A stretch of 64,000 nucleotides of DNA. It comes from an uncultured Acidobacteriota bacterium. GTDB lineage: Bacteria; Acidobacteriota; Thermoanaerobaculia; Multivoradales; UBA5704. The stretch is from contig CAVYRF010000002.1 of assembly GCA_963770895.1 (NCBI GenBank), forward strand, positions 5,600,001 through 5,664,000. The letters run 5' to 3'. A program made the translations under genes and the position numbers. Below, piece after piece: positions 2-49,219 of the stretch (its first letter is position 1; every line of letters starts with the position of its first letter). Under the pieces are notes generated by a model. It had not been told where the DNA came from. It was given only the letters and a program-made list of their open reading frames with translations, and did not search any database.

Positions 2-16018
<16,017 letters not shown>

Positions 16019-16022
<4 letters not shown>

Positions 16023-19000
16023 CCGTCGCGGCGCCGCGGCAGCGGGCGCCCGACCGCGACGACGACCTGCGGCCGGTCTGGGAGCTGGCGGAGCGGGTCG
16101 TCGGCGACTGGCAGCTGGAGCGGCCGGTGGTCAAGCTCCTGGAGCACAAGAAAAACGTCACCTTCAAGGTCGAGGAGACGGCCGGCGCGCGAAACCGCTA
16201 CGTCCTGCGCGTCTGCGACCCCGACGGCTACGGCGAGGCGGAGATCCGCTCCGAGCTGCGCTACCTGCTGGCCCTGCACCAGGCGACCGGCCTGGTGGTG
16301 CCCGAGCCGGTGCGCACGCGCGACGGAGCGCTGCTCGGGCGCGGCGAGCACGCCGGTCTGGCGCGGCCGCGCTGGTGCGCGCTCTTCCGCTGGGTGCCGG
16401 GGCGGATGGTCGAAGACACGCCGGCGCCGGCGCTGCTCGAACGGGTGGGGGAGATCTCGGCGCGGCTGCACGCCTTCTCCGGCGAATGGCTGCCGCCGGC
16501 CGATTTCCGCCGGCCGCGCTGGGACGCGGCGGGCCTTTTCGGCAGCGGCGATGCTGGCGGCGGCGCGGTGCTACCCGCCGGCCAGGGGGCGCCGCTGGTG
16601 GGCGATCGCGCGCGCGAGCTGGTGGAAGAGGGCGCCGCGGTGGTGCGGGCGGCGATGCGCGACCTGGGCGAAGGGCGGGACGTCTTCGGCCTGATCCATA
16701 AGGACCTGGAGCCCGACAACACGCTGGTCGACGGCGACCGCGTGCACGCCATCGACTTTGCCGACCTGGGCTGGGGGCACTTTCTGTACGACATCGCGGC
16801 GTCGCTTCTGCCGCTGCGCGAAAAGGCCGGCTTTGCCGCCATGCGCCAGGCGTTCCTGCGCGGCTACCGGCGCGTGCGCCCGCTCGCCGCCGAGCACGAA
16901 GCGCTTTTGGAAACCTTTCTGATCGCGCGCGGCATCTTTTCGCTGCGCCTGATGACCGGCCGGCTGTGGGACCTGCCGCAGATCCGCCTCTACGCCGAGA
17001 CGGCCGTGCCGCAGATCCTGGGCGGCATCCGCGTGTTCCTGGCGCGGCGCCGCGCCGAGGCGGCGGGGCGGCCGGCGACGGCGGCGGGCAGCACGCAGAC
17101 CACGGTGCAGTACCTTGCCGTGCTGCGCAGCCGCGGCGTCAAGCTGTGGGTCGAAGGCGACAGGCTGCGCTACAGCGCACCGCGTCAGGTGGCGACCGCC
17201 GAGCTGCTGGCCGAGCTCAAGGAACGCAAGCAGGAGCTGCTGGGCTTTCTGGCGCAAGGCCAGGCGGCCCGCCGCCTGGGGGCGCCGGTAGCGCTGGCGG
17301 CGGCGGGGCTGGAGCGCCCGCCGCTGTCGTTCGCCCAGCAGCGGCTCTGGTTCATCCACCAGCTGCTGCCGGCGAGCACGGAATACAACATCGCGCGCGC
17401 CGTGCGCCTGCGCGGCGCGGTGCGCGTCGGCGTGCTGGCGGCGAGCCTGCGGGAGATCGTGCGCCGCCACGCGGTGCTGCGCACCACCTTCGCCCTCCAC
17501 GATGGGCAGCCGGTGCAGGTGATCGCTGCCGCCGGGCGCGTGCCGCTGCCGCTGGTCGATCTGGGCGCCCTGCCGCTTGAGCGGCGCGAGCCCGCGGCGT
17601 GGGGGCTGGCGTTGGCCGACGCGGCGCGCCCCTTCGACCTGGCGCGCGGGCCGCTGCTGCGCGTCTGCCTGCTGCGCCTGTCGGCGACGGATTTCATCGC
17701 GCCCAGCACGATGCATCACGTGATCGGCGACGGCTGGTCGAGCGCCGTGCTGTTTCGCGAGCTGGGGGCGGTGTACGCGGCGGTGGCGCGCGGCGCGCCG
17801 TCGCCGCTGCCGGAGCTGCCGCTGCAGTACGCGGACTTCGCGGTGTGGCAGCGGCAGTGGCTGGCCGGCGACGTGCTTGCCGAACAGCTCGATTTCTGGC
17901 GGGGGCAGCTGGCAGGCGCGCCGCCGGTGCTCGCCCTGCCGGCGGACCGGCCGCACCCGCCGGTCGCCGCGGCCGCCGGCGCGCCCGGCGATCGCCGGGC
18001 GCTGCTCATCCCGCAGCCGCTGGCCGCGGCGCTCAAGACGTTCAGCCAGGCGCAGGGCGCGACGCTGTTCATGATCCTGCTGGCGGGATTCAAGACCCTG
18101 CTGTGCCGGATCTGCGGCCAGGACGACGTGGTGGTCGGCTCGCCGATCGCCAACCGCAATCGCACCGAGATCGAAGGGTTGATCGGTTTTTTTGCCAACA
18201 CCCTGGTGCTGCGCACCGTTTTTACAGGCGATCCCACCTTCCGTGAAGTGCTGGGCAGCGTGCGCCAGACGACGCTGGGTGCCTATGCCCACCAGGATCT
18301 GCCGTTCGAAAAGATCGTCGAAGAGCTGCGCCCCGAGCGCGACCTGACGCAGACGCCGCTGTTCCAGGTGATCTTCACCTTCCAGAACGTCCCGTATCCC
18401 GACATGGACGTGGCGGATTTCCACATGACGCTGATGCCGCCCACCGGCCGCGCCGCGATGTTCGATCTCACCTGCAACATGAAGGAGATGCCCGAGGGGG
18501 TGCGGACCTCCTTCATGTACCGGCAGGACCGTTTCGACGGCGCCACCGTCGAGCGCTTCGCCGGCTGGTATCTGCGGCTGCTCGAAACCGTCGCGGCCGA
18601 CCCCCACCAGCGCATCCGCGAGCTGCCCCTGCTGTCGGCGGCGGAGACCCACCAGCTGCTGCGGGAGTGGAACGACACCGCGGCCGAGCGCGGCGGGGCG
18701 GCAGATTGCTACGCGTGGATCGCGGCGCAGGCCGCCCGCACCCCCGACGCCGTGGCCGTGGCGGCGGAGCGCCGGCAGGTGACCTACGGCGAGCTGCTGG
18801 CGCAGGCCGAGCGCCTGGCGGCGCGCCTGCGCCGGCTGGGCGTCGGACCCGAGGTCCGGGTCGGCATCGTGGCCGAGCGCTCCGCCGCCATGGTGATCGG
18901 CATCGTCGGCGTCCTGGCGGCGGGAGGCGCCTACGTGCCGCTCGATCCCGATCAGCCGCGGCAGCGCCTGGCCTTCATGCTGGCCGACGCCGCGGCGCCG

Positions 19001-22000
19001 GTGCTGCTGATCGAGGAGCGGCTGCACGGCGTGCTGGCGCCGCCGGCGGGCATGGCGGTGGTAGAGCTGCAGGACGAAGGGGCGGACGCGCCGGCGGCCG
19101 GGTCCGCGCCGGCAGTTGGGGAGGCGGCGGCGGGGACGGCGGGGACGAAGGGGGCGGTCGACGCGGCGGGCGCCGCCTACGTGATCTATACCTCGGGCTC
19201 GACCGGCCGGCCGAAAGGGGCGGTCAATTCCGCCGGCGCCCTGGCCAACCGCATCCAATGGATGCAGGATCAGTACGGCCTCACCGCCGCCGACGCGGTG
19301 CTGCAGAAGACGCCGTTCGGCTTCGACGTCTCGGTGTGGGAATTCCTCTGGCCGCTCGCCACCGGCGCCCGCCTGGTGATGGCGCGGCCCGGCGGCCACC
19401 TGGACCCCGCCTACCTGCGCCGGCTGATCGTCGAGGAAGGGATCACCACCCTGCACTTCGTGCCGTCGATGCTGCAGGTCTTCCTGGCCCAGGACGGCCT
19501 CCTGGAGTGCCGCTCGCTGCGGCGGGTGATGGCGAGCGGCGAGGCCCTGCCCGCGGACCTGGCGTTGCGCTGCACCCGCTGGCTGCAACAGCTGGCAGCC
19601 GGCGAGCCCGCCGCGGCGCTGCACAACCTGTATGGCCCGACCGAGGCGGCGATCGACGTCACCAGCTGGCGGTGCGACGCCGACGCGGTGAGCGAGCCGG
19701 TGCCCATCGGCCGGCCGATCGCCAACCTGCGCCTGCGCGTGCTGGATCGCGAGCTGCGCCCGGTGGGCGTGGGCGTGGCGGGCGAGCTCTGCATCGGCGG
19801 CCAGGGCGTGGCGCGCGGCTATTGGGGCCGTCCCGAGCTGACGGCCGAGCGCTTCGTCCCCGATCCGCTGGCCGAAGACGCCCCCGGCGAGCGCCTGTAC
19901 CGCACCGGCGACCTCGCCCGCTGGCGCCACGGCGGCCAGGTCGAATACCTGGGGCGCATCGACTTCCAGGTCAAGGTGCGCGGCGTGCGCATCGAGCCGG
20001 GCGAGATCGAAGCCGCGCTCGCCGCGCACCCCGCCGTGCGGCAGGCGGCGGTGCTCGCCCGTCCGGCGGCAAGGGACGCGCCGCCGGGGCCGGCGTCTCC
20101 GGGGGCCGGTGAGGGGGCAGCCGCCGGTCCGCGGCTGGTTGCATACCTTGTGACCGGCGAGCCGGCGCCGGGTGCGGCGGAGCTGCGAGCGTTTCTGCGC
20201 CGCACGCTCCCCGAAGCCATGGTGCCGCAGGCGTTCGTCGCGCTGGCGGTCCTGCCGGTGGGGCCGAACGGCAAGCTGGACCGCAAGGCGCTGGCCGCGC
20301 TGCCGCTGGGTGAGGTGGACGGCGCGGTGGCGGCTCGAGGGCCGCGAAGCGCCGTGGAAGAGATTGTCGCCGATCTCTTCCGCGAGGTGCTGGGCCGCGA
20401 CCAGGTGGGCGTCGACGCCGGTTTCTTTGAAATGGGCGGCCACTCCCTCCTGGCGGTCCGCCTGGTGGCGCAGGTGCGCCGGGTCTTCGCCGTCGAGCTG
20501 CCGGTGCGAGCCGTGTTCGACGCGCCCACCGTCGCCACCCTGGCGGCGCGGATCGAGGCGGCGCTGCGCCAGGGCGCCCCGCCGTTGCCGCCGCTCGTGC
20601 CGCGCCGCCTGGCGGCGGCAGGCGCATCGCGGCCGCCGCAGCCTGCCGATACGTCGTGGCCATCGCAGCCCGCCGACTTGTCACTGCCGCGTCCGCCCAC
20701 CACGGCGCCGCTCTCGTTCGCCCAGGAGCGCCTGTGGTTCCTCGACCAGCTGGAGCCCGGCACCGCCCTGTACAACATGCCGGCGGCGCTGCGCCTGCGC
20801 GGCCCATGGCAGCCGGCGATTCTGCGTCGGGCGTTCGCGGAAGTGGTGCGCCGCCACGAGACCCTGCGCACCCGCTTCGTGCCTGGACCCCCTCCGGCGG
20901 CGGAGCTGATCGCGGGCGGCGTGATGCCGCTGCCGTGGATCGACCTGTCCGGCGTTCCGGCGGCATCCGCGACAGCCCGCGCCTGGCGCGAGCTGGAACG
21001 GCTGGCCGGTGAGGAGGCGCGGCAGCCGTTCGACCTGGCGCGCGGGCCGCGAGATCCGGCGAGTGCCGGCGGGCCACCGCGGCCGGCCGGCCTGTTGCGG
21101 GTACGGCTGGTGCGGCTGGCAGCCGACGACCAGGCGCTGCTTGTCACGGTGCATCACACTGTCGCGGACGGCCTGTCGCTGGGCGTGCTGGTGCGCGAAC
21201 TGGCTGCTCTGTACCAGGCCTTCGCGGCGGGGGCTCCGTCGCCGCTGCCCGAGCTGCCGATTCAGTACGGCGACTACGCGGCGTGGCAGCGGTCGTGGCT
21301 GGCCGGCGAAAGGCTGGAACGCGAGGTGGAGCAGTGGCGGGAGCGGCTGGCGGGAGCCCCGCCGCTGCTGGCGTTGCCGCTCGACCGGCAGCGGCCGGCG
21401 GTCGCCAGCCACAGGGGAGGGAGCGTGCCGGTGCGGCTGCGCCCTGCACTGCGCGCGGCGCTGGCGGCGCTGGCGAGCCGCCACGGCGCCACTGTTTTCA
21501 TGACCCTGCTTGCCGGCTTGCGCACGCTCCTGGCGCGGGCCGCCGGCGAGCGCGACGTCGTGGTCGGCACCGCCGTCGGCGGCCGCTCGCACGTCGAAAC
21601 CGAAGGCTTGATCGGCCTCTTCGTCAACACCCTGGTGTTGCGCACGGATTGCGGCGGCAACCCGGACGTCGCCGGCCTGTTGGCGCGGGAGCGGGAAACG
21701 ACCCTGTGGGCCTACGGCCATGCCGACCTGCCCTTCGAGAAGCTGGTCGAAGCCCTGGCGCCGCGGCGCAGCCTGGCCCATTCGCCGATCTTCCAGGTCA
21801 TGCTGGTCTTCCAACAAGACCCCTTGGGTGCCGGCGCCGTGGCCGTCGAGCCGCTGGGCGCAGGAACCCGGGCCGCCGGGTCGGTGGTCCCCGTTACCCG
21901 AGCCACAGGGTTCCCGACCGCCGAACCCGCGGCGGTTGCGTCGCTGACGGCCGAGGCCATGAGCGTTGGCGCGTCGCAGGGTGGCCTGGAGCACCTGGCG

Positions 22001-25000
22001 ATGCGGAGCGATTCCGCCAAGTTCGATCTCAGCCTGGCGCTGTCGCACGACCTGACGGGCACGCTGACGTTCGCGAGCGACCTGTTCGATCGCGCCACGG
22101 TGCTGCGGTGGAGCGAGAGCCTGGCGCTGCTGTTGGAAGGCATGGCGGCGGACCCCGGCGCCCCGGTGATGCAGCTGCCGGTCCTGGCCGCCGGGGAGCG
22201 CGCCCAGCTTATCCACCAGTGGAACGACACCGCCGTCGCCCTGCCGCCCTTGCTGTTGCACGACTTGGTCGCGGCCCAGGTGGCGCGCACCCCGGATGCG
22301 ATCGCCGCGGAGTTTGACGACCGCTGCATGAGCTACGCGGAGCTGGGCTTCCAGGCCGCCGGCCGAGCCCGGAGCCTGCGCGAGCTTGGAGTGGGCATCG
22401 ACACCCCGGTGGCGGTCGCCGCCGAGCGCGACCCTGACGTTGTGGTAGCCCTCTTGGCCGTGCTGACGGTTGGCGGCGTCTGCCTGCCCCTCGATCCAGC
22501 GCTGCCGGACCATCGCCTGCGCGAAATGACCACTGCCGCCGGCACCACTCTCCTCCTGGCGCAAGAGAGCCTTCGCGACCGATGCGAGCCTTTCTGTCCT
22601 CAGGTGCTTGCGCTCGACGGTCCGGTGAGAACGGAGAGAACCTCGGCCCGCGGCGACTGGGTTGCGAAGCCGGGTGGCGTCGATGGAGCGGCCCGCCAAA
22701 CGAACCGTGGAACCGCCGGCGTAGTGGCCGTGGACACGGGCCAGGTGGCCGCCGACGCAGGGGCTCGCGAAACGAGCCAGATGGCCGGCGATGCCGCGGC
22801 AAGCAAAACGGGTCAGGACGCCGCCGATGCAGCGGCTGGCAAAACGGCCCAGGTGGCCGCCGATGGGGCGACCGGCGAGACGGGCCAGGGCGCCGCTGAT
22901 ATGGGCGATACGGCGGCGCAGCGGACGCGCGTCACGGCCGACGGCGATGCGCTCGCTTACATCCTGTATACCTCGGGGTCGACCGGGCGGCCGAAGGGGG
23001 TGGGGCTTTCGCACCGCGCTTTGGTCAATCGGCTACTTTGGGCACAGGCGGAGTATCCGCTGCGCCCGGATGACCGGGTGCTGCAGATCGCCGGGTGCGG
23101 ATTTGACTTCGCGGTGTGGGAGACGTTTGCGCCGCTGATCGCCGGCGCCCGGCTGGTGTTGGCGCGGCCGGGCGGGCAGCAGGACCCCGCCTACCTGGTG
23201 GCGACCTTGCGCGAGCGCGGGATCACCATCGCCCACTTCATCCCGTCGATGCTGCAGCTGGTCCTGGACGAACCGGGGCTTTCCGCGTGCACTGGGTTGC
23301 GCCACCTGTTTTCGGGTGGCGAGGCGCTGCCGGCGGCGCTGCGGGACCGCACGCTGGCGGTGGTGCCTGGTGCCATCCTGTGGAACCAGTACGGCCCCAC
23401 CGAGGCGACGGTGGACGCCACCTTCCACCGCTGCGGCGGCGGTGGGCGAGTGGACGACCAGGGGGCGGGGCTGCCGGCGACCGCCGCGGCGGAATGCTGC
23501 GGCGTTGCATCGGACGCCTGGACGGTGCCGATCGGCGGGCCGGTTGCCAACACCCAGGTCCACCTGTTGGATGGCGGCCTGCGACCGGTGCCGATCGGCT
23601 GGCCGGGCGAGATCCATATCGGCGGCACGGCGTTGGCGCGAGGCTACCTGGGCCAGGCCGATTGGACCGCCGAGCGCTTTGTGCCCGATCCGTTTGCCGG
23701 CGAGCCCGGCGGCCGGCTCTATCGCAGCGGCGACCAGGCGCGGCGGCGCGCGGACGGCGCGATCGAATTTGTCGGCCGCGCCGATCGCCAGGTCAAGGTG
23801 CGCGGCTTCCGCGTGGAATTGGGCGAGGTGGAGGCAGCGCTGGCGGCGCTCGCCGGCGTGTGCGAGGCGGCGGTGGTGGCGCCGGGCGGCGAACGGCTGG
23901 TGGCGTGCGTGGTGGCGGAGGGGGCCACGGTGGGCGAACTGCGGCGGGCGCTGGCCCAACGGCTGCCGGCGGCGATGGTCCCGGCCGCTTTCGTGTTGCT
24001 GCCGTCGCTGCCCAGGACGCCCAACGGCAAGGTGGACCGCCGGGCGCTGGCGGCGCTGCTGGCCGATGCCCCGCCAACGCCGGGAGAGCCGGGGGCGCCG
24101 GCGGTGCCAGGGGACATCGCGCCGCGGTCGCCGGCGGAAGAGCTGCTGGCCGGTCTGTTCGGCCAGCTCCTGGGGCGCGCGGACGTCGGCGTCCAGGACG
24201 ACTTCTTCGAGCTGGGCGGCCACTCCCTGCTGGCGGTGCGCCTGGTGGCGCAGGTGCGCCACGTGTTCGGCGTGGAGCTGGGGGTGCGGTCGGTCTTCGA
24301 GGCGCCGACGGTCGCGGCGCTGGCCGTGCGCGTCGAGCAGGCGGCGCGGCTTGATCGTCCGGCACCGCCGCCGCTGGTCCGCGTGCCGCGCCCGGCGCCG
24401 CCGCCGCACGCCGGCGGGGCGCCGGCGCCCGCCGCCGCGACGGTCGTGCCGCTGTCGTTTGCGCAGGAGCGCCTCTGGTTTCTCGAGCAGCTGGAGCCCG
24501 GCACGGCGCAATACAACATCCCGGCGGCGCTGCGCCTGCGCGGCAGCGTGTCGCCGGCGGTCCTGGCGCGGGCCTTCACCGAGGTGGTGCGCCGGCACGA
24601 GGTGCTGCGGTCGCGCTTCGTGGCCACCGACCCGCCCGCGGCGGAGGTCGCCCCCGCCGCGGCGCTGCCGCTGCCGCTGATCGACCTGGGCGGGCTCGCC
24701 GCGGCGCCTTCCGCGGCCGGGCGCGAGCTGGCGCGGCTGGCGCGGGAAGAGGCGCGGCGGCCGTTCGACCTGGCGCGCGGCCCGCGAGCTGAGGCGAGTG
24801 CCGGCCGGCCACCGCGGCCGGCCGGCCGAGCTGAGGCGAGTGCCGGCGGGCCACCGCGGTCCGCCGGCCGAGCTGAGGCGAGTGCCGGCTGGCCACCGCG
24901 GCCGGAAGGCCTGCTGCGGGCGCGGCTGGTGCAGCTGGGGCCCGCCGACCGGGTGCTGCTGTGCACCTTGCACCACGCGGTGGCGGACGGCGCCTCGCTG

Positions 25001-28000
25001 GGTGTCCTGGTGCGCGAGGTGTCGGCGCTGTATGCCACGTTCGCCGCGGGGCTGCCGCCGGCGCTGGCCGAGCTGCCGGTCCAGTACGGCGACTACGCGG
25101 CGTGGCAGCGGTCGTGGCTGGCGGGGGAGCGGCTGGAGCGGGAGGTGGAGGGGTGGCGCGAGCGGCTCGCGGGGGCGCCGCCGGTCGTGGCGCTGCCGCT
25201 GGACCGCCAGCGGCCGGCGGTTGCGAGCCACCGCGGTGCGAGCCTGGCGGTGCGGCTGCGGCCCGAGCTGCGGCAGGCGCTGGCGGCGGCGGGGCGCCGC
25301 CACGGCGCGACCCTTTTCATGACGGTGCTGGCGGGCTTCCAGGCCTTGCTGGCGCGCTGCGGCGGCGAGCGCGACGTGGTTGTCGGGACGCCGGTCGCGG
25401 GGCGCTCGCACCTGGAGCTGGAGGGCCTCATCGGCCTGTTCGTCAATACGCTGGCGCTGCGCACCGACCTGACCGGCCAGCCCGGCGTGGGCCAGACGCT
25501 GGCGCGGGCGCGGGAGGCGGCGCTGTGGGCGTACGGACACGCCGAGCTGCCGTTCGAACGGCTGGTGGAGGCGCTGGCGCCGCAACGCAGCCTGGCGCAC
25601 GCGCCGCTGGTCCAGGCGATGCTGTCGCTGGAGGAGGAGCCGCCGGGCACGCTGCGGCTGGGGGACGTCCAGGCTACCGCCCTGCAGGTCCACTCGGCCA
25701 CGGCGAAGCTCGACCTGCTGCTGGCGCTGGGCGGCGACCTGACGGGCTCGATCGAATATGCCACCGACCTTTTCGACCGCGCCACCATCGAACGCTTCGT
25801 GCGCCACCTGGAGCGCCTGCTGGGCGGCGTCGCCGCGGATGCGCCCGGCCCCCTGGCGGAGCTGCCGCTGCTGGAGGAGGCCGAGCAGGCGCAGCTGCTG
25901 CGGGAGTGGAACGACACCGCGGCGCCGGCCGGCGAAGGCTGCCTGCATGAGATGTTCGCCGCGCAGGCGGCGCGCACTCCCGCGGCCGTTGCGGTGGCGG
26001 TGGCGGGCGGCGAGCGGCTGACCTATGCCGGGCTGGCGGCGCGGGTCGCGGCCCTGGCGGAGGTGCTGCGCGGCCACGGCGTCGGCCCCGAGGTGCGGGT
26101 GGGGGTCCTGCTGCCGCGCGACGCCGACCTGCTGGTGACCCTGCTGGCCGTGCTGCAGGCGGGGGGCGCCTACGTGGGGCTCGACCCGGCCTATCCGCGC
26201 CCGCGGCTGGCCTGGATGGTCCAGGACTCGGCGGCGGCGCTGGTGGTGACGCGCGGCGGCCTGGCCGCGTTGGTCGCAGGGAGCGGCGCTCCGGTGGTGC
26301 GGCTCGAAGCGCTGGCGGCGCTCGCAGGAGGCACAGGGAGCGCAGGGGTGGCGGCGCCGGCAGCGGCTGGAGCGGACGCCGCGGCGGTCGCCGGCGCGCC
26401 GCGCGCCGCCGTGCCGCAGAACCTGGCGTACCTGATCTATACCTCGGGCTCGACCGGCCGCCCCAAGGCGGTGGGGATCGAGCATCGCAGCGCGGTGGCG
26501 CTGGTGGCCTGGGCGCAGCGCACCTACGCCGCCGCGGAGCTGGCGAGCGTGGCTGCGACGACGTCGGTGTGCTTCGACCTGTCGGTGTTCGAGCTGTTCG
26601 TGCCGCTCGCGACCGGCGGCCGGGTGGTGCTGCTGGCCGACGCCCTGGCGTTGGCCGGGCTGCCGGCCGACGACGCGGTGACGGGGGTGACGCTGCTCAA
26701 CACCGTGCCTTCGGCGGTGGCGGCGCTGGTGCAGGCCGGGTCGCTGCCGCCGTCGGTGCGCACCGTCAACCTGGCGGGCGAGGCACTGTCGGGGAGCCTG
26801 GCGGATCGGCTGTACGGCGCGGCAGCGGTGGCGCGGGTGGTGAATCTTTACGGTCCGTCCGAGGACACCACGTATTCGACCTGCAAGGAGGTGGCGCGGC
26901 AGCGGCCGGGCGAGCCGACGATCGGCCGCCCGCTGGACAACCGGCACGCCCGCGTGCTGGATGCGGCGGGCCTGGCGGTGGCGCCGGGGATCGCCGGCGA
27001 GCTGTGCCTGGGCGGCCGCGGCCTGGCCCGCGGCTACCTGGGGCGCCCCGACCTGACGGCGGACCGCTTCGTCCCCGACGCCTGGGGCGGCGAGCCGGGG
27101 GCGCGCCTCTATCGCACCGGCGACCTGGCCCGCCACCGGCCGGACGGCGAGCTGGAATTCCTCGGCCGCCGCGATCACCAGGTGAAGGTGCGCGGCTTCC
27201 GCATCGAGCTGGGCGAGGTCGAGGCCGCCCTGGCCGCGCTGCCCGGCGTGCGCGAGGCGGCGGTGGTGGCGGCGCCGGAGAGCGATCGGCTGGTCGCCTA
27301 CGTGGTCACCGACCACACCGCCGGCGCGACGCCCACGGCGGCGGCCGCTGCCGGCGACCTGCGCCGGGCGCTGGCCGCCCGGTTGCCCGCGGCGCTGGTC
27401 CCGGCAGCCATCGCGTTTTCCGCGGCGCTGCCGCGCACGCCCAACGGCAAGGTCGACCGCAAAGCGCTGGCCGCCGCGGCGCCCGGTGCCGCAGCCGGCG
27501 GCGGCGGCCTGCCGCTGGCGCCGGCCGCGCCGCGCGACGAGCTGGAGCTGGCTCTGCACGGCGTCTGGGAAGAGGTGCTGGGCGCGCGCGGCGCGATCGG
27601 CATTCGCGACCACTTCTTCGACCTGGGCGGTCATTCGCTGCTGGCGGTGCGCCTGGTGGCGCGCGTGCGCCAGCGCCTGGGCGCCCAGATCAGCCTGGCC
27701 AGCCTGTTTGTCGACGGCACCGTCGAGCGCCAGGCGGCGCTGCTGCGGCAGGGCGGCGGCATGCCGGCGGGCGCCGCGGCGGCTGGGGCGCCGGCGCGCT
27801 CGCTGGTCCAGGTGCGGGCCGGCGGCGGGACGCCCCCCTTCGTCTGCGTCCACCCGGTCGGCGGGAGCGTGCTGTGCTACTTCGAGCTGGCGCGGCGGCT
27901 GGACGCGGCGACCCCATCCGGCCGCCCGTTCTGGGGCTTGCAGGCGCCGCCGGCGCCGCCCGCGTTGCAGCCGGCAGCGATATCGGTGGAGGAGATGGCG

Positions 28001-28714
28001 GACCGCTACCTGGCCGAGCTGCGCGCCGCGCAGCCGGACGGCCCCTACCTGCTCGGCGGCTGGTCGATGGGGGCGCTGGTCGCCTTCGAGATGGCGCGCC
28101 GCCTGCGCCAGGCCGGCCGGCCGGTGGCGGCGCTGGTGCTGCTCGACCCGCCGCCGGCGGCTCGCCCAAGCGGCGCGGCGGCGCCGGCGGAGCTGGAGCC
28201 GGCGCAGGCATCCATCGCGCTGCTTGCCAGCTTTGCGCGCGACCTGGCGGCGCTCGGCGGCCTGGAGGCGCCGGGTGTTGCGGCGGACCTGGAGCGGCCG
28301 GAGCAGCTCGCAGAGACGCTGCGCGCGGCGACCGATGCGGACGATGCCGTCCGGCGCCTGTGCGCCTGGGCGCGGCGCACCGGCGCCCTGCCCTCCTACG
28401 TCGGCGACGGCCTGGTGCGCGAGCTGTCGCAGGTGTTCCTGGCCAACCTGGCCGCCGCCCGCGCATACAGGCCCGCGGTCTACGACGGCGCCTGCGACCT
28501 GCTGCTCGCCGCCGGCACCGCCGATGCCAGCAGTGCCGGCAGTGCCAGCGGTGGCACCGGCGCCGCCGCCGATCTCTCGCGCGGCTGGGCGCGCTACGCC
28601 ACCGGCGGCGTGCGCATCACGGCGGTGCCGGGCGGTCACTACGGCCTGCTGCGCCAGCCGGATGCCGCCTGCTGGGCGGCGGCCCTGGCCCAGGCGCTTT
28701 CCACCAGCCTATGA
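16019..28714 (+). CDS. NRPS with N-terminal phosphotransferase: kinase-(TubC_N docking)-C-A(Ser)-T-C-A(X)-T-C-A(Ala)-T-TE
   Basis: GTG start overlaps the upstream stop (GTGA). Kinase motifs VLRV, LIHKDLEPDN, IDFAD. Docking GVKLWVEGDRLRYSAP. C motifs HHVIGDG, HHTVADG, HHAVADG; three GGHSL carriers; TE GWSMG. Manual codes DVWHMSLIDK, DFWHFGQVDK, DLFNNALTYK. Confidence 0.95.
20627..20707 (+). repeat. Degenerate 27-bp x3 in-frame tandem repeat in a T-C linker
   Basis: Encodes SRPPQPADT/SWPSQPADL/SLPRPPTTA; units start at 20627, 20654 and 20681. Confidence 0.6.
22736..22915 (+). repeat. Degenerate 36-bp x5 in-frame tandem repeat inside an A domain
   Basis: Units at 22736, 22772, 22808, 22844 and 22880 encode TGQVAADAGARE / TSQMAGDAAASK / TGQDAADAAAGK / TAQVAADGATGE / TGQGAADMGDTA. 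Confidence 0.75.
24785..24910 (+). repeat. Near-perfect 42-bp x3 in-frame tandem repeat inside a C domain
   Basis: The unit cgagctgaggcgagtgccggcNggccaccgcgg... occurs at 24785, 24827 and 24869, encoding RAEASAGxPPRxxG three times. Confidence 0.9.
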
Positions 28715-30450
28715 AGGCCATCGGCACTCTGCTCGGCTTCCTCTACCGGCAGGCGCGCGGCCTGGCCAGCCTGGCGATCGCGGCCGGCCTGGTGAGCGGC
28801 GCCGCCGGCGCGGCGCAGCTCGCCATCCTCAACGCCGCGATCGACCAGGACGACGCGCACCGCCGGCTGGCGCTGTTCGCCGGCTTCGCGGCGCTGCTGC
28901 TGGTCGCTCCCGCCTCCCGGCTGGTCTGCCAATACCTGATGGTGAAGCTCGGCCAGGACGTGGTGTACGACCTGCGGCTGCGCCTGGCCGGCCTCATCGT
29001 GTCGGCGCCGCTGGCGCACCTGGAGCGGCTCGGCCCGAGCAAGCTGCTGGCGGCGCTCACCGACGACACCAGCGCCATCACCGAGGCGCTCATCGTGGTG
29101 CCGGAGGTGGCCAGCAACGGCGCCCTCTTCCTGGCCGGGCTGGTCTACCTGGGCTGGCTGTCGCCGCTGCTGCTGACGGCCTTCCTGACACTCTTCGTGC
29201 CGGTCCTGGTGCTCTACCGGTTCCCCGTCGCCAGCGCGTTCGAGCGCTACCGGCTGGCGCGGGAAGAGCAGGACGTCCTGTACGGCGCCTTCACCGGCGT
29301 CACTGCCGGCGCCAAGGAGCTGAAGCTGAACGCCGAGCGGCGCGCCGCCTTCTTCGGCCGGCTGGCGGCCACTGCCGGCGGCCTGCGCCGCCTGTTCGTG
29401 CGCGCCAACGTCACGCTCGCCGCGGCCGTCGCGGGCGCCTGGACGTTCTTCATGGCCGCGGTCGGATTGATCCTGTTCGGCGCGCCGCTGGTGCGCCCGG
29501 TGCCGCGGCAGACCCTGGTGGGGTACGCGCTGGTGCTGCTGTTCCTGCGCGGGCCGCTGCAGCTGGTGGTGGGGTCGTTTACGGCTCTCGGCCGCGGCGG
29601 CGTCGGGCTGCGCAAGCTCGAACGCCTGGGCTTCGAGATGCGGCAGTCCGCCGAGGCGGCCGAGCCCGCGGCGCCGGCCGCCGCCGGCCGTGCCGTCGCG
29701 GCTGCCGGTGCTGCCGGAGCCGCCGCCGGGTGGCGCCGGCTGGACCTGGAAGGCGTGACGTTCAGCTTCCATCGCGAGGACGGCGAAGCGGACTTCCTGC
29801 TGGGACCGGTCGACCTGACGCTGCGGCCGGGCGAGCTGGTCTTCCTGATCGGCGCCAACGGCAGCGGCAAGACCAGCTTCGCCAAGCTCCTGGCCGGCCT
29901 GTACGAGCCTGCCACCGGCGAGATCCGCTGGGACGGCGAGCGCGTCGACCGCGCCGGCCTGGACCGCTACCGGCAGAACTTTTCCGCCGTGTTCCACGAT
30001 TTCTATCTCTTCGCCGAGCTGCCCGGCGCGGCGCGGCCGGACCTGGCCGAGGTGTCGCGGCGCTACCTGCGCGACCTGCACCTGACGGGCAAGGTCGAGA
30101 TCGCCGACGGCCGGCTGTCGACGACCGACCTGTCGCAGGGGCAGCGCAAGCGCCTCGCCCTGCTCGCCGCGTACCTGGAGGACCGGCCGATCTACCTGTT
30201 CGACGAGTGGGCGGCGGACCAGGACCCCTACTTCAAGGAGGTGTTCTATCGCCGCATCGTGCCGCGGCTGCGGGAGGCCGGCAAGACGGTCGTGGTGATC
30301 AGCCACGACGACCGCTATTTCGACGTCGCCGACCGCATCGTCCGCTTCGACGAAGGGCGTGTCTCCTTCGGCGGTCCGGCGACACCTGCAAAGATAGGGA
30401 GCTCAATCGACGCTTCATCAACTACAATGCACGAACGAGAGTGCGTATGA
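28711..30450 (+). CDS. Cyclic peptide export ABC transporter (PvdE/SyrD/YojI family)
   Basis: ATGA overlap with the NRPS stop. N-terminal TM helices, Walker A GANGSGKT, signature LSQGQRKR, family hallmark DEWAADQDP. Confidence 0.93.
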   Translation: MKAIGTLLGFLYRQARGLASLAIAAGLVSGAAGAAQLAILNAAIDQDDAHRRLALFAGFAALLLVAPASRLVCQYLMVKLGQDVVYDLRLRLAGLIVSAPLAHLERLGPSKLLAALTDDTSAITEALIVVPEVASNGALFLAGLVYLGWLSPLLLTAFLTLFVPVLVLYRFPVASAFERYRLAREEQDVLYGAFTGVTAGAKELKLNAERRAAFFGRLAATAGGLRRLFVRANVTLAAAVAGAWTFFMAAVGLILFGAPLVRPVPRQTLVGYALVLLFLRGPLQLVVGSFTALGRGGVGLRKLERLGFEMRQSAEAAEPAAPAAAGRAVAAAGAAGAAAGWRRLDLEGVTFSFHREDGEADFLLGPVDLTLRPGELVFLIGANGSGKTSFAKLLAGLYEPATGEIRWDGERVDRAGLDRYRQNFSAVFHDFYLFAELPGAARPDLAEVSRRYLRDLHLTGKVEIADGRLSTTDLSQGQRKRLALLAAYLEDRPIYLFDEWAADQDPYFKEVFYRRIVPRLREAGKTVVVISHDDRYFDVADRIVRFDEGRVSFGGPATPAKIGSSIDASSTTMHERECV

Positions 30451-31733
30451 ATGCTTCAGGCCGCATGCAAATGGCGCTGTTCCGAGCCCGCGACGTCTGG
30501 CGGCAGGCGGTCGGCGCCGTCGTCGAACGGCAGGACCGGCGGGAGTTCGCGGCGTTCCACCGCGGCCTGGTGCGGCGCCAGGACATTCTCTACATGTTCT
30601 TCACCAGCGACCTGCTGCACTGGCTGGACCGGGCGCTCGCCTGCGTGCCGCCGGCGGTCAACCTGGTGCTGATCGGCTCGGACCTGTCGGCGGATGAACT
30701 GGCGTGGATCCGTTCGCGCTACCGCCGGCCGTTCCACCACATCCGCTCGCGGGTGGACGACAACACCGTGCTGGACCTCGCCTTCCGGGCGGCGGCGGGC
30801 AACTTCGGCTGGCTGCACGTCGACTGCTTCGTGCTCAACCCGCGGCTCTTCCAGGAGATGGCCGACCTGCCCGACGACGTGGTAGCCAACTGCATCTGGT
30901 CGCACCCGGCGGCGCCGAGCGCAACCGGTGCGCACGATGGCCCCGGTGCGTCGAGCGCGGACGGCGCCCAGGCCCTGCACTCGGCCTTCGTCTTCATCAA
31001 CTACGGCGTGATCCGGGCGCTGCGCCGGCGCGGCCTGCTGCCGTCGCCGTGCAGCCACCACTACCAGGGCGCCGCGACGGGGCGCACGGTCACCCGCCGC
31101 AAGCTCTACAGCCGGGTGCCGCGGCGGCGCCACGTCGCCCAGCTGGCGCGGGTGCTGCCGCCCGGCGCCGACGGGCTGCCGCAGTATCCGCAGCGGGGCA
31201 ACTATTTCCAGGTTCTTGTCGTATTTCAGCTGGTAGCGAACGCGCTCGGCTACCGCCTCCGCCAGGTGCGCGATCTGCGGCGCGACGGCACCGGCTCGGC
31301 GGCCAACTTCTCGAACGAGATCGTGCATGTCAACGGCGTCGCCACCTACAAGTCGTACCGCGACGATGCGACGACCATCGGCGGGCGTTTCTACCCGCTG
31401 TTGCTGCAGGCGGACTACGTGATGCTGGCGGCGCTGGGAGACGACGTGCCGCCGCGCTACCGCCAGCTGCGCGGTGAGCTGGAAACCGAGCTGACCCGCC
31501 TGCGCATCCCGGTGCGGGCGGCACGGCGCAACCTCGGCGCCTTTCTGGCTGAGCGCGGCATCGCCCCCGATCGCGCGGCACTCATCCTCGGCAAGCCCGA
31601 AGCATCCGAAGCGCCGGTAGCGCCCGCAACACCCCTGGCGCCCCTTGCAGTCACCGCGCCCGAAGCGAGCCCCGAAGCACACCGGGAACCTGCCCTGGCC
31701 GGCAGGACTTCCGTACAGGAGACACATCGATGA
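30447..31733 (+). CDS. Hypothetical protein, possibly glycosyltransferase GT-A-like
   Basis: ATGA overlaps at both ends and coding-like codon use. FGWLHVDCFV resembles the hhhDxD strand of GT-A folds. Function is inferred only. Confidence 0.6.
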   Translation: MNASGRMQMALFRARDVWRQAVGAVVERQDRREFAAFHRGLVRRQDILYMFFTSDLLHWLDRALACVPPAVNLVLIGSDLSADELAWIRSRYRRPFHHIRSRVDDNTVLDLAFRAAAGNFGWLHVDCFVLNPRLFQEMADLPDDVVANCIWSHPAAPSATGAHDGPGASSADGAQALHSAFVFINYGVIRALRRRGLLPSPCSHHYQGAATGRTVTRRKLYSRVPRRRHVAQLARVLPPGADGLPQYPQRGNYFQVLVVFQLVANALGYRLRQVRDLRRDGTGSAANFSNEIVHVNGVATYKSYRDDATTIGGRFYPLLLQADYVMLAALGDDVPPRYRQLRGELETELTRLRIPVRAARRNLGAFLAERGIAPDRAALILGKPEASEAPVAPATPLAPLAVTAPEASPEAHREPALAGRTSVQETHR

Positions 31734-34180
31734 GCCTCACCGCTTCGTTCCGCCAGGATCTGCGCTGGAGTCAGCACATGATGCGCCGCAACCTCGCTCT
31801 GACCGCGGCGGTCGTGCTCTCGCTCGGCATGACGATCGGCGCCAACACGGCTACTTTCAGCGTGCTCAATGCGTTCCTGCTGCGGCCGCTGTCGATCCAG
31901 GACGCCGACCGCGTGGTGCGCGTGCGTGAAAACCTGGCGGCGCCCGACAAGGCGCCGTCCCTGCGCAGCCTGACGGCGGCAAACTACGGCGCCTGGCGGG
32001 CTCACCAGCGGGTCTTCACCGATATCGCGGCGGCCACCGGCACCAGCCTGACGCTGACCGGCAGCGGCGAACCCGAGCGTTTCTCGGCCGCGCTGATCAG
32101 CGCCAACTTCTTCCCGCTGCTGGGCATCCAGCCGCTGCTCGGGCGCAACATCGCGGCCGAGGAAGACCGTCCCGGCCAGAACCAGGTGGTCATCCTCAGC
32201 TTCGACGTCTGGCAGCAGCGGTTCGGCGGCGACCCGGCCATCATCGGCCAGCTGATCCGGCTCAACGGCGAGCGCTACACGGTGATCGGCGTGATGAACC
32301 GCGGCTTTCACCACCCCTACGAAGCGGACATGTGGGTGCCGCTCGCCTATCACGAAGACCCCACCGCCGCCGCCGTCGACCAGGAGTACTACGCCCCGGC
32401 GCGGCTCAAGCCGGGAGTCACCCTGGAGCAGGCGCGCCAGCAGATGAACGACCTGGTCAAGCACCTGCGGGAGGACAACCCGCGGCCCAACGCGCCAAAG
32501 TCGGCGGACCTGAGCCCGATCCGCCACGAGCTGGTGGGCGACCTCGACAAGCTGCTCTACCTCATGGTCGCGGCGTCCGCCTTCGTCCTGCTCATCGCCT
32601 GCGTCAACGTCTCCAACCTCTTGCTGGCGCAGGGCCTCAAGCAGTCCGCGGAGGTCGCGGTGCGGGTCGCGCTGGGCGCCACGCGCGGCCGCCTGATCCG
32701 CCAGATCCTGACTTACAGCCTGCTGCTGGCGATGCTGGGCGCGGTGCTCGGCATCCTGCTCGCTTCGTGGTCGATGAAGCCGCTGGTCGCCCTCAGCCCG
32801 GCCTATGCGCTGGGCGAATTCGACATCGAGCCGCGGCTGGACCTGCCGACCCTGGGCTTCACCCTGATCGCCTCCCTGGTGGTCGGTTTCCTGTTCGGCA
32901 TGATGCCGGCCCTGCGCATGTCCCGCACCAGCATCAGCAGCACGCTGCAGGAAGGCGGCCGCGCCCGCACCCTGGGCAAGGCCGGGCGCCGCCTGCTCAG
33001 CGCCCTGGTGGTCGCCGAAGTGGCGCTGTCGCTGGTGCTGCTGGTCGGCGCCGGCCTGATCTTGCGCAGCTTCCAGCGCCTGCAGGCGGAAAACCGCGGC
33101 TTCGACATGCACAACGTGCTCAGCTTCACGGTGCCGCTGCCCGACTTCAAGTTCCCCAACCGCCTGCAAAAGGTGGCGTTCGTCAAGAAAGCCCTGGACC
33201 GCCTGCACGCCGTGCCGGGCGCCGAAGGGGTGGGCGGCAGCACCGCCCAGCCGCTGTACACCGGGACCTATGCCACCAGCTTCAACGTCGAAGGCAACCT
33301 GGTCACCACCGATCGCGGCTACCACATGGTGCACAACCGCATCGTCACCCCCGGCTATCTGGAATCGCTGCGCGTGCCGCTGCTTGCCGGCCGCTACCTC
33401 AACGATCACGACACCGCGGACTCGCCGTGGGTGGTGGTGGTCAGCAAGTCGCTGGCCGACCGCTACTGGCCCGGCCAGAGCGCGATCGGCAAGCGGGTCA
33501 AGCGCGGCCGCTTCGACTCGACCCGGCCCTGGCTGACGGTGGTGGGCGTCGTCGGCTCGATCAAGGAGACGCACGACGAGCTGATCGACACCGACGACGC
33601 CTGGTACTTGCCCTACAGCCAGCCGATCTTCGACGACATCCCGCGCATGACGTTCATGGTGCGCATGCCTTCCAACGCCGCGGCGGTGGCGCCGGCGGTG
33701 CGCGAAGCCATTCACCTGGCCGACAAGGACGAGCCGATCTACAGCATGATGACGATGGAGGAGCGCTTCGCGCAGCGCACCACGCCCGAGCGCTTCAGCA
33801 CGGTCATCTACACCAGCCTGGGTTGCCTCGGCCTGCTGCTGGCGGCGATCGGCATCTACGGCGTGCTCTCCTTCAGCGTCAACCAGCGGCTGCGGGAGAT
33901 CGGCATCCGCACGGCGATGGGCGCCCAGCCGCGACAGCTGCGCGCCCTGGTCATGACCTCCGCGATGCGCTTGACCGCGGCCGGCCTGGTGCTCGGGGTG
34001 ATCGGCGCGCTGGTGCTCACCAAGCTGCTGTCCAGCCAGCTCTACCAGGTCAGCCCGCACGACCCGGTGGCACTGGTGGTGGCGCTGATCTGCCTGGCGG
34101 TGATCGCCTTCCTGTCGGCCTACCTGCCGGCGCGGCGGGCTTCCAGGATCGACGCGGTCAAGGCCCTGCGCTTCGAATGA
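31730..34180 (+). CDS. ADOP-family (duplicated MacB/FtsX) ABC permease
   Basis: 816 aa. Motifs LGMTIGANTATFS, VLLIACVNVSNLLL, VRVALGA, EIGIRTAMGA, PARRASRID. Confidence 0.92.
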   Translation: MSLTASFRQDLRWSQHMMRRNLALTAAVVLSLGMTIGANTATFSVLNAFLLRPLSIQDADRVVRVRENLAAPDKAPSLRSLTAANYGAWRAHQRVFTDIAAATGTSLTLTGSGEPERFSAALISANFFPLLGIQPLLGRNIAAEEDRPGQNQVVILSFDVWQQRFGGDPAIIGQLIRLNGERYTVIGVMNRGFHHPYEADMWVPLAYHEDPTAAAVDQEYYAPARLKPGVTLEQARQQMNDLVKHLREDNPRPNAPKSADLSPIRHELVGDLDKLLYLMVAASAFVLLIACVNVSNLLLAQGLKQSAEVAVRVALGATRGRLIRQILTYSLLLAMLGAVLGILLASWSMKPLVALSPAYALGEFDIEPRLDLPTLGFTLIASLVVGFLFGMMPALRMSRTSISSTLQEGGRARTLGKAGRRLLSALVVAEVALSLVLLVGAGLILRSFQRLQAENRGFDMHNVLSFTVPLPDFKFPNRLQKVAFVKKALDRLHAVPGAEGVGGSTAQPLYTGTYATSFNVEGNLVTTDRGYHMVHNRIVTPGYLESLRVPLLAGRYLNDHDTADSPWVVVVSKSLADRYWPGQSAIGKRVKRGRFDSTRPWLTVVGVVGSIKETHDELIDTDDAWYLPYSQPIFDDIPRMTFMVRMPSNAAAVAPAVREAIHLADKDEPIYSMMTMEERFAQRTTPERFSTVIYTSLGCLGLLLAAIGIYGVLSFSVNQRLREIGIRTAMGAQPRQLRALVMTSAMRLTAAGLVLGVIGALVLTKLLSSQLYQVSPHDPVALVVALICLAVIAFLSAYLPARRASRIDAVKALRFE

Positions 34181-45721: not shown

Positions 45722-46887
45722 GTGTAGTGCGCCCTAATTAGGAATCCTTATATGCGGTTCGTACGTATCGTCCTGTGGGAGGATTGGGACGATGCGGATC
45801 GCACCGTTGGTTCTGGTTTCGCCGGAGGAAAGGCGGCAGTTGGAGGCCTATGCCCGAGGCCGCAGCACGCCGACGCGTCTGGTGCAGCGCGCGAAGATCG
45901 TCTTGCTGGCCGCCGAGGGCAAGGAGAATCGGGAAATTGCCGAAAGTCTTGGCATCATGCGGCATACCGTCGGACGTTGGCGGAGCCGCTTTTGCCAGTT
46001 CGGCCTGAGCGGGATCGAGAAAGACGCGCATCGAAGTGGGCGCCTGCCGAGCCTGTCCCAGGGCTTGCTACGGAAGATCGTGCGCAAGACAACGCAAGAG
46101 ACGCCGCAGGACGGCACTCATTGGAGCACGCGGAGCATGGCCGAGGCGGTCGGGGTCAGCGCCTCGACGGTGCGCCGGGTCTGGCAGCGGCACGGCCTCA
46201 AGCCTCATCGGGTGCGGACCTTCAAGCTGAGCAACGATCGACGCTTTGTCGAGAAAATGGAAGATGTCATCGCGCTCTATCTCAACCCGCCAGAGCACGC
46301 CCTCGTCTTGTGTGCCGATGAGAAGAGCCAGATCCAGGCTCTTGATCGGACTCAACCCGGCCTGCCGATGAAGAAGGGCCGCTGCGGCACGATGACGCAC
46401 GACTACAAGCGCAATGGCACCACGACGTTATTCGCGGCCTTGAGTACGCTGGACGGTAAAGTCATCGGTAGCTGCATGCCGAGGCACCGCCACCAGGAGT
46501 GGTTGAAGTTCCTCAAACAAATCGATCGGGAGACACCCGCAGCCAAGCAAATCCACCTGATCGCCGACAACTATGGCACCCACAAGCACGCGGTCGTTCT
46601 ACGCTGGATCGCTCGGCATCCGCGATTTCACCTTCATTTCACTCCGACCAGTGCCTCCTGGCTCAACATGGTCGAACGCTTCTTCCGACACCTGACCGAG
46701 AAGCAAATTTCCCGTGGAGTGTTCCGCAGTGTCGACCAGCTCGAATCCGCGATTCTGGGGGCGATCGAGCGGCACAACTCTGATCCTAAACCCTACATCT
46801 GGACGGCTAAGGCTGCTGACATCCTCGAAAAGGTCAAGAGAGCACGTCTCAGACTGAATAAGGTCCCATCTGTGTGACGCACTACAC
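45722..46887 (+). mobile_element. IS630-family insertion sequence (~1166 bp)
   Basis: Ends ctagtgtagtgcg (45719-45731) and cgcactacactag (46878-46890) are inverted; flanking TA within CTAG is typical of IS630. Confidence 0.9.
45792..46877 (+). CDS. IS630-family transposase
   Basis: [55 protein letters not shown]. Confidence 0.96.
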
Positions 46888-48067: not shown

Positions 48068-48412
48068 CCTAGCTCAGCCAACGAGCGGACTAACCTTTTC
48101 GTCCGGGCGCGAGAGCGATTAGGTCCGGCGGCGAGCCGTCAGGAGATCCGCTAAGTACCAGTTGGACTCAACAGCTTCGTCGTAGGTTGCCGCATCCACC
48201 ACTTGCTGTCGCCATCAATAGATGCTGTGCGATAGCGCATCCAGCTTGCCACTGACCTCCTATTGCAATTTCGGCAAGCCTATCCTTGGACATGTGAAGA
48301 CGCTCTCGGCCGGCTACGGATTGCTTCGTCTCCGATGGTGGCCTTGAGGGGCAGCGCCACGCTGCTCCCCTCGAAATCCTTCAGGATTAAGCGCAGCCGA
48401 TGGAGATCAAGA

Positions 48413-49219
48413 ATGGAAATCGTACCTTGCTTCGATGCTCAACACCTGACATCAATCGCGAAGATCATGGGGGACACGAATGATGGTCTTACGGGTCAGG
48501 AAATAGAATACCTGCTGCGGGACTGTCGCATCTATGACCCCGACCCCGGTATGACCAAATGGAAGCGTCTCTTCAATGCCTTTGTGGCAACACAGAATGC
48601 AAAGAAGGTTGGTAACCATGTAGTGATGTTCATTAACAGGGCGATGAACCCTGTCCAATATGGCTCTCGCCCCGTGGTCTTTCGCGCTCGGCAGGACCGA
48701 CTAAACGTTGTGCTTGCGTTTAGCGGGATGCGCCTGGGCGATGAGGGCAAGGTCACGCGAAGCCAGAAGACCGGTACACTTGATCAAGCTCTGGAGCGTG
48801 CCGGCCGCTTACATCTGGCACTGACACAGCGAGAGGTTCATCGAGATGTCTTGGCTTATTGTCGCGCCGAGCTTCTTCAGGAGAACTACTTCCACGCGGT
48901 CCTGGAGGCGACCAAGAGCATCGCGGCCAAAATCCGGTCCCTTTCGGGCCTCGGCGGCGATGGCGGAGGGCTCGTTCAGGCTGCTTTTGGGCTTGGCCAA
49001 GGCAACCCCGTACTGGCGATAAACTCTCTAGCGAACGATACGGACAAAGGAGAACAACGAGGCTTCATCAACCTACTCGTAGGCTTGTTTGGGACCATTC
49101 GTAATCCCTTGGCGCACAACGCTAAAGTTGAGTGGGCAATGAGCGAACAAGATGCACTGGATATTTTAACCTTGGCTTCTCTTGTACACCGGAAGCTCGA
49201 TAGTGCCTACAGACCATGA
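48413..49219 (+). CDS. TIGR02391 (Ymh, HEPN-like) family protein with AbiJ-like N-terminus
   Basis: GLTGQEI...TKWKRL N-terminus; ENYFHAVLEATKS; EQRGF; RNPLAH (RxxxxH). Confidence 0.85.
   Translation: MEIVPCFDAQHLTSIAKIMGDTNDGLTGQEIEYLLRDCRIYDPDPGMTKWKRLFNAFVATQNAKKVGNHVVMFINRAMNPVQYGSRPVVFRARQDRLNVVLAFSGMRLGDEGKVTRSQKTGTLDQALERAGRLHLALTQREVHRDVLAYCRAELLQENYFHAVLEATKSIAAKIRSLSGLGGDGGGLVQAAFGLGQGNPVLAINSLANDTDKGEQRGFINLLVGLFGTIRNPLAHNAKVEWAMSEQDALDILTLASLVHRKLDSAYRP

Follow-up and report, generated by a model that had tools for sequence, protein, structure and literature searches.

A nonribosomal peptide synthetase (NRPS) of an uncultured soil Acidobacterium begins with a kinase domain, followed in the same polypeptide by a docking domain and the first condensation (C) domain. 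The gene, 16019-28714 (+), lies in the 64,000-nucleotide stretch of DNA that was analysed here as a whole and is called the window (assembly GCA_963770895.1, contig CAVYRF010000002.1, positions 5,600,001 to 5,664,000). It encodes 4231 amino acids in the order kinase, docking domain, three modules of C, adenylation (A) and thiolation (T) domains, and thioesterase (TE). A known enzyme type is thus placed in a new, conserved assembly-line position. We found no NRPS-integrated kinase in full-text searches, which left out most subscription journals and are no proof of absence; the conserved kinase-docking-C arrangement is apparently undescribed. Its probable substrate is the product of the pathway itself, and we propose below that the phosphorylation serves the self-protection of the producer.

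A single uninterrupted frame (15731-28714) covers the kinase, the docking domain and the NRPS. Translation most likely starts at a GTG (16019) overlapping the TGA that ends the preceding NRPS (16020-16022), and a public protein (P0002) has the same start and the same length of 4231 amino acids. The kinase domain, of the aminoglycoside phosphotransferase (APH) fold, occupies 16019-17053 (+; residues 1-345), as delimited by Pfam, by relatives in the PDB and by the clade analysis described below; profile PF01636 matches residues 46-288 over 228 of its 239 positions (E = 7.7e-25; 88.5 bits against a cut-off of 23.2). A flexible Ala/Gly/Pro-rich linker whose sequence is poorly conserved in the alignment (17054-17083, +) leads to an internal β-hairpin docking domain of the TubC_N type at 17084-17263 (+; residues 356-415), where PF18563 matches residues 364-413 (E = 4.6e-18; 65.5 bits against a cut-off of 26). 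Behind them Pfam finds Condensation, AMP-binding, PP-binding and thioesterase domains in the same polypeptide. In the domain map the first C domain, with its HHVIGDG motif intact, spans 17321-18661 (+), and the A and T domains of module 1 span 18722-20563 (+). Codes of A domains were read out by alignment to the specificity positions; that of module 1, DVWHMSLID, is of the Ser type in the Stachelhaus table. An earlier note, made from the letters alone, had described a complete-looking kinase in frame with a TubC_N domain and followed by a Ser module; Pfam, the translation and the domain map bear this out, with its coordinates correct to within about 10 bases, and the scan with PF01636 and PF18563 that it had suggested places both above their cut-offs in one protein. 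The motifs that it had listed, VLRV (here within YVLRV), PEPV, LIHKDLEPDN, IDFAD and YDIA, are all found.

The partner on the other side of the junction is an NRPS of the order C-A-T-C-A-T (9105-16022, +; Pfam and domain map), both of whose A codes read DIWE[VI]TADD, a diamino-acid type. Its last T domain (15720-15911, +), the GGHS site of which is kept in all six aligned tails, would present the chain at the subunit junction. The protein ends in ...AAELQEGEL, and we presume the short linear motif ELQEGEL (15999-16019, +) to be the docking partner. The six upstream frames that end right before a kinase share the tail consensus [DE][LY][EQ]xGE[LIF], with the G and the following E invariant. This consensus fits the short acidic C-terminal motifs that a review describes for the partners of β-hairpin docking domains, so that the ending pointed out in the earlier note is not only of the acidic type but also recurrent. 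The docking domains of TubC, Kj12, EpoB and Bamb_5915 likewise belong to TubC_N, have a C domain behind them and meet an acidic tail on the upstream carrier. In the review, however, such domains are described as N-terminal, as the note had also stated, and these four are N-terminal, whereas here 345 enzyme residues come first and the docking domain starts at residue 356. It stands behind the kinase in all 36 fused relatives as well, with the β-2 motif at residues 353-405.

Recurrence and origin of the fusion

The first 434 residues, used as a query against long proteins, gave 19 matches. Seventeen of these, the window's own included, start with the kinase and align over 87-100% of the query at 43-71% identity; the remaining two match the docking domain only. 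Every one of 12 loci from species-representative genomes matches past the kinase through residue 413 or beyond, and these loci come from Thermoanaerobaculia or Acidobacteriota, one being labelled uncultured bacterium. Five proteins of about 1500 residues were tested, and all five read APH-TubC_N-C-A-T. When 1.84 billion representatives were searched exhaustively, 4325 relatives came up at E ≤ 0.001, the top scorers being N-terminal kinases of long proteins. Among 401 genomes sampled across the phylum the fused form occurs only in the window's genome and in one other (G176), while 6 genomes hold standalone relatives or docking-domain matches.

From all matches 247 kinase domains were cut, 36 of which have a docking domain behind them. 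These 36 fall into one clade of 37 tips, with a FastTree support of 1.0 and an SH-aLRT value of 99.5 in an IQ-TREE analysis of the 37 clade tips together with 70 randomly chosen from the 210 others. The 37th tip is a truncated protein of 371 residues that ends inside the start of the docking domain. Identity within the fused clade averages 48% and falls to 32%, and no clade member shows a break between kinase and docking domain. The tree indicates that one ancient gene fusion placed the kinase ahead of the docking domain. A stop or frameshift between the two domains, which the note had named as fatal to its view, is seen neither here nor in the 12 related loci, and a homologue search for the kinase-docking-C order yields 36 fused domains rather than relatives with separate kinases throughout. 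On one short, low-coverage contig (L015:2128-2140) the frame shifts where the C domain starts, just past the docking domain, leaving a kinase-docking protein of 453 residues (P0021), which is either truly split or the result of a frameshift introduced by sequencing.

Contigs of four soil-metagenome runs match the window exactly at 16113-16285, 16624-17022, 16781-16993 and 17105-17314, and none of them spans 17022-17105; because the public contigs do not bridge this interval, the evidence against an artefact is comparative. An assembly or gene-calling error that joined a separate kinase gene to the NRPS, for which only this gap leaves room, is refuted for practical purposes: 12 loci, taken from separate genome records, and 36 proteins of the database have the same unbroken frame, and the covered pieces are identical to the window.

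The kinase and its characterised relatives

The catalytic loop HKDLEPDN (16697-16720, +) holds the Brenner motif HxDxxxxN as H227, D229 and N234, and the metal-binding segment IDFAD (16751-16765, +) holds D246, the DFG-type Asp, and A248. The three Brenner residues and D246, by which the APH family is recognised, occur in the window's kinase and in all 36 fused relatives, as does E79; R64 is found in 35 and A248 in 30. The domain is complete and apparently active, as far as its residues tell. Over 15 full-length proteins the mean identity of the kinase (47%) is close to that of the docking domain (50%), the first C domain (53%) and the first A domain (43%); judged from this conservation, the fusion arrangement is kept under selection.

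The amicoumacin kinase AmiN matches the domain with E = 1e-10 as a single sequence and with E = 2e-44 against the family profile, over nearly its full length, and H227, D229 and N234 align pairwise with H200, D202 and N207 of AmiN. A profile search of the PDB gave E = 1e-94 for 6EF6, an uncharacterised 'aminoglycoside phosphotransferase', and E = 2e-17 for homoserine kinase II; YihE, YtaA and choline kinases were also matched, and ACAD11 faintly (E = 5e-4). The models for homoserine kinase type II, TIGR00938 and NF003558, reach 52 and 57 bits against cut-offs of 256 and 271 and match only residues 224-322. By these comparisons AmiN is the nearest characterised relative of the fused kinase.

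The fused kinase is nevertheless a relative of AmiN and not a member of its subfamily, because two of the subfamily's residues are changed, and any likeness in function is at most one of analogy. The AmiN paper lists H204 and the metal site D219/D221/D222 as conserved; D219 and D222 are kept as D246 and D249, whereas H204 corresponds to E231 and D221 to A248. At the former position the fused clade has Glu in 27 of 36 and Gln in 7, against His in 104 of 202 standalone kinases, and at the latter Ala in 30 of 36 against Asp in 174 of 202 standalone tips (P0133 counted as standalone). The clade also has an inserted PLRE segment. The fused kinases are more acidic, with a mean net charge of -5.5 against -0.45 for the standalone ones, which fits a cationic substrate.

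AmiN (PDB 6SUI/6SUM) shares with the fused kinase the APH fold and a place in a cluster of NRPS and polyketide synthase (PKS) genes, but it is a standalone protein, whereas the kinase described here is a synthetase domain with the Glu and Ala changes and the PLRE segment. According to its paper, AmiN inactivates the cationic product of its own cluster within a kinase-phosphatase cycle of self-resistance. ComG (corramycin) and Cph/Vph (capreomycin, viomycin) are APH-related kinases of NRPS clusters that (PMC10996006 for ComG) phosphorylate a hydroxyl of the peptide antibiotic for self-resistance; they too are standalone and only distantly related to the fused kinase. Neither was matched in the PDB profile search, where ComG was represented by nothing nearer than 3CSV, its closest structural homologue (E = 3e-6). 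The statement of the note that kinases of known clusters are separate proteins agrees with the sources for AmiN and ComG. The only embedded kinase that we found in print, that of the cyanobactin macrocyclase DolG/AphG, likewise sits in a biosynthetic enzyme and phosphorylates a pathway peptide, but it is a PF00069 protein-kinase domain between protease and DUF domains, acts on Tyr/Thr and belongs to a ribosomal pathway, not to an NRPS.

Standalone relatives at about 40% identity occur in variable, non-cluster contexts with no common operon; their neighbours include Fic, GT2 and DapB in one case, luciferase-like and MFS genes in another, and transposases on a Herpetosiphon plasmid. More distant standalone relatives from other Acidobacteriota (L036:9911-13287 and L034:9914-12388; 32-34% identity) both adjoin a class-III aminotransferase gene, with a TauD-family dioxygenase beside the kinase in L036 and an acyl-CoA synthetase-like gene in L034. 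The pairing of kinase and class-III aminotransferase recalls, by analogy, the kinase-phospho-lyase pathways for amino alcohols. Other fusions within the kinase family (P0152, P0184 and P0207) join a CAP domain, with or without LysM, to the kinase, or the kinase to a PhyH-type dioxygenase.

The gene cluster and related loci

Module 2 of the kinase-NRPS, C-A-T, lies at 20708-24343 (+) with the A code DFWHFGQVD, which is of no assigned type. Its A domain (22271-24034, +) carries an insertion of about 100 residues within the N-terminal half, and a close code, DFWHFGQID, is found in the first module of a relative (P0008). Module 3, C-A-T with the code DLFNNALTY of the Ala type, and the TE occupy 24449-28663 (+).

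Upstream of the two-module NRPS, a PKS subunit that begins outside the window (at L022:18562) occupies 2-9103 (+). By Pfam and the domain map it reads ketosynthase (KS), acyltransferase (AT), ketoreductase (KR), acyl carrier protein (ACP), KS, AT, a KR-like region and ACP. The first KR has the YxxxN motif and the second, KR-like region lacks it. In this last PKS module some 740 residues between AT and ACP (6542-8767, +) have a weak KR match (E = 0.0013) and a Rossmann-like GGLGEVG, and look like a degenerate or divergent ketoreductase. Directly before the PKS, 4.2-1.8 kb upstream of the window, lies a pair of PALP- and OCD-family genes (L022:15826-18165) that pass the equivalog cut-offs for SbnA and SbnB, respectively, the two enzymes of L-2,3-diaminopropionate synthesis (TIGR03945, 421 bits against 350; TIGR03944, 395 against 327; NCBIfam). 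Because of this pair the product very probably contains 2,3-diaminopropionate (Dap), an amino acid in which the tuberactinomycins are also rich.

Downstream, the start of an ATP-binding cassette (ABC) transporter gene overlaps the NRPS stop (28711-30450, +); it is of the cyclic-peptide-export type (TIGR01194, 401 bits against a cut-off of 286). Behind it come a gene for a conserved protein of 428 residues (30447-31733, +), a MacB-type ABC permease (31730-34180, +; Pfam) and an acylase of the penicillin-amidase family (34183-36759, +). This N-terminal-nucleophile (Ntn) enzyme is PvdQ-like (Pfam E = 5e-150), its match to the NCBIfam PvdQ model being weak and far below cut-off. The set of exporter, MacB and acylase resembles pathways that export an N-acylated precursor which is then deacylated outside the cytoplasm; the amicoumacin cluster uses an N-acyl prodrug step.

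The 428-residue protein matches nothing in Pfam, NCBIfam or the PDB. It has 84 database relatives, several of which share contigs with kinase-NRPS genes, and it is syntenic in G403, L010, L012 and L013, so that it travels with this type of cluster. H58, H97, D104, D105, D126, C127, R213, R275 and H294 are among its invariant residues, which suggests an enzyme. Look-alikes of a homologue, sought with a language model, belong to unnamed clusters only, apart from a weak lead to glycosyltransferase 2 (13% of one cluster, rank 17). The G+C content of the window is about 75% over the first 37 kb and drops to 55-66% between 40000 and 58000, where a DDE_3 transposase (45792-46877), a Hypoth_Ymh protein (48263-49219) and a Rep_1 replication protein (49829-51049) are encoded; a mobile element seems to have inserted here, next to the cluster.

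A syntenic cluster in a second genome (G403) has MacB, SbnA and SbnB, then one NRPS module, four PKS modules and two NRPS modules, and continues with kinase-docking-C-A-T-C-A-T-TE, a homologue of the 428-residue protein, MacB and acylase; no match to the ABC exporter is listed there. Between SbnB and the synthetases it holds extra genes (L038:4846-13696) for proteins like ornithine carbamoyltransferase, the 3-phosphoglycerate dehydrogenase SerA, 3-hydroxybutyryl-CoA dehydrogenase and HAD/MDP-1, a set that resembles the ureidoalanine and hydroxymalonyl logic of zwittermicin. Zwittermicin and paenilamicin are named by the AmiN authors as possible further targets of AmiN-like kinases. Eleven shorter loci also have kinase-docking-C. 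Four of these (L010, L012, L013 and L037) adjoin genes for the exporter, the 428-residue protein, MacB and/or the acylase, with MacB or the PvdQ-like acylase in four and the 428-residue protein in three; in L010, L012 and L013 the kinase-NRPS gene comes after those genes and not after an upstream NRPS.

Possible roles of the tethered kinase

The analysis establishes how the synthetase is built, that this order is conserved, that the catalytic residues are intact and what the cluster contains; the substrate of the kinase, the timing and a protective role we infer. We propose, with moderate confidence, that the cis-tethered kinase protects the producer by phosphorylating a hydroxyl within the conserved N-terminal part of the product. 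In this proposal the acidic tail of the upstream NRPS would dock at the β-hairpin domain and so place the acyl-peptide on its carrier beside the kinase before it passes to the first C domain. The kinase would then transfer a phosphate from ATP to a hydroxyl on the N-terminal part, that is, the polyketide and the two residues that follow it, while the chain is still on the line or as soon as it is released. The phosphorylated polycationic compound would stay inactive inside the producer, and the kinase step would act together with the logic of N-acyl prodrug, exporter and periplasmic acylase. That the domain is the first dedicated NRPS kinase domain, tailoring in line at the docking interface by phosphorylating a carrier-tethered intermediate between subunits, is a narrower claim, which we put forward only tentatively.

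Several observations weigh against self-protection by phosphorylation of this part of the chain. The position of the kinase alone is no proof of action on the line, because the same placement would result if a stop codon had been lost and the fusion were neutral. The chemistry may differ from that of AmiN, since two active-site positions are changed in the fused clade, and no phosphatase was recognised in the window's cluster. The residues that flank the junction are variable. The first A domain past the kinase, taken as the first one recovered (a first A domain missed by the filter would shift these counts), has a Ser or Thr code in 7 of 24 fused proteins (Thr 5, Ser 2), a Val-like code in 4, DAWQCGLIE in 2, DAW-xGHVx in 3 and other, all-different codes in 8; those that are neither Ser nor Thr read Val-, Gln-, Leu-, Ala-, Orn- or Tyr-like. 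The downstream Ser, one of two targets considered in the earlier note, is therefore unlikely to be the general one. The A domain before the junction is DIWEITADD in 2 loci, DSAL[VI]AEVW in 3 adjacent loci and 1 non-adjacent one, of Thr type in 1 and of Gly type in 1. Since the A domains on both sides vary, neither flanking residue is a general target. DSAL[VI]AEVW is a His signature that tolerates β-hydroxylation, according to PMC12283262. No hydroxyl-bearing unit was found to be universal among the loci, and the nearest polyketide hydroxyl may sit one unit further back, because the last KR-like region lacks YxxxN. The polyketide part is conserved among the loci, as are the upstream subunit with its two modules and the genes for export and acylase.

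An ordinary self-resistance kinase could also have become fused neutrally and act, as AmiN and ComG do, only on the free, released compound, so that its position has no mechanistic meaning. The kinship with AmiN agrees with this, loss of the stop codon between adjacent genes yields exactly the observed order, and the standalone relative among transposases in Herpetosiphon looks like a mobile resistance gene, with the other closest standalone relatives in variable contexts outside clusters. The fusion, however, persists across a clade with identities down to 32% and no clearly split member, and the clade has its own fixed active-site changes and the PLRE insertion. We consider such a neutral origin unlikely; it overlaps with our favoured explanation and differs from it only in timing.

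Rather unlikely, in our view, is a kinase that activates a leaving group: a carrier-bound hydroxyl would be phosphorylated and the phosphate then eliminated or displaced (by dehydration, ring closure or amine addition), so that none is left in the product. Precedents for such chemistry exist. The sulfotransferase domain of the curacin PKS CurM activates a hydroxyl on an acyl thioester by sulfation, and elimination follows; the kinases ACAD10/11 and LvaA phosphorylate an acyl-thioester hydroxyl before elimination, and in ACAD10/11 the APH-fold kinase is fused to the next enzyme. In favour of this reading, the kinase stands at the hand-over from carrier to C domain in every member of the fused clade, and the positions at which its active site departs from that of resistance kinases are fixed. 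The last PKS module lacks a dehydratase and has a degenerate KR, and no phosphatase was recognised in the cluster. On the other hand, CurM, ACAD10/11 and LvaA belong to other pathways and no sign of elimination was found here: we identified no lyase or other partner enzyme and no conserved hydroxylated unit beside the junction, and the nearest characterised relative is a resistance kinase. The phosphorylated prodrug fits the cluster context better than elimination does.

The kinase might instead act on free L-serine, making O-phospho-L-serine for SbnA and hence L-2,3-diaminopropionate, with the fusion serving co-expression only. SbnI has this serine-kinase role in staphyloferrin B. SbnA and SbnB are encoded in the same cluster and in the syntenic one of G403, SbnA orthologues (57-64% identity) occur in four of five other genomes with the fusion, and the kinase fold includes homoserine kinase type II. 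Three NCBIfam models of SerC all stay below cut-off in the window genome, as they do in most of 14 control genomes, where they pass in only 4, 1 and 2. We nevertheless consider a role in precursor supply improbable. The homoserine-kinase models match far under their cut-offs and in the C-terminal third only, AmiN being much closer, and the SerA-like gene beside SbnA/B in G403 speaks for the ordinary route to phosphoserine. In G404, a genome with the fusion whose completeness is not established, neither SbnA nor SbnB has a close match (31% and 36%). The closest standalone relatives have no SbnA-type neighbour in two loci of about 17 kb (Pfam), and tblastn with SbnA and SbnB was negative over 18 standalone loci of at least 5 kb.

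Finally, the domain could be an inactive scaffold with a likeness to kinases, there only to strengthen or gate the docking of the subunits, as the Ala in 30 of 36 at one of the three metal-site Asp of AmiN-like kinases might suggest; this is highly improbable, since the catalytic base, the Asn and the DFG-type Asp, residues of the kind that pseudokinases usually lose, are invariant in all 36 and the Arg/Glu pair of the N-lobe is kept.

Phosphorylation is rare in natural-product biosynthesis, and the kinases known from NRPS/PKS pathways, AmiN, ComG and Cph, are separate proteins; here at least 36 synthetases from uncultured members of the Acidobacteriota have long retained a kinase domain. Should this domain modify the chain while it is tethered, it would count as a new type of NRPS domain and would give docking domains a new interface geometry. 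Action in line would be a new way to protect or activate a growing chain, and kinase-docking-C a portable cassette for engineering. If it is a tethered resistance enzyme, self-protection would be wired directly into the synthetase. The cluster would also point to a so far uncharacterised compound family, Dap-containing, polycationic and lipopeptide-like, whose prodrug design has two steps.

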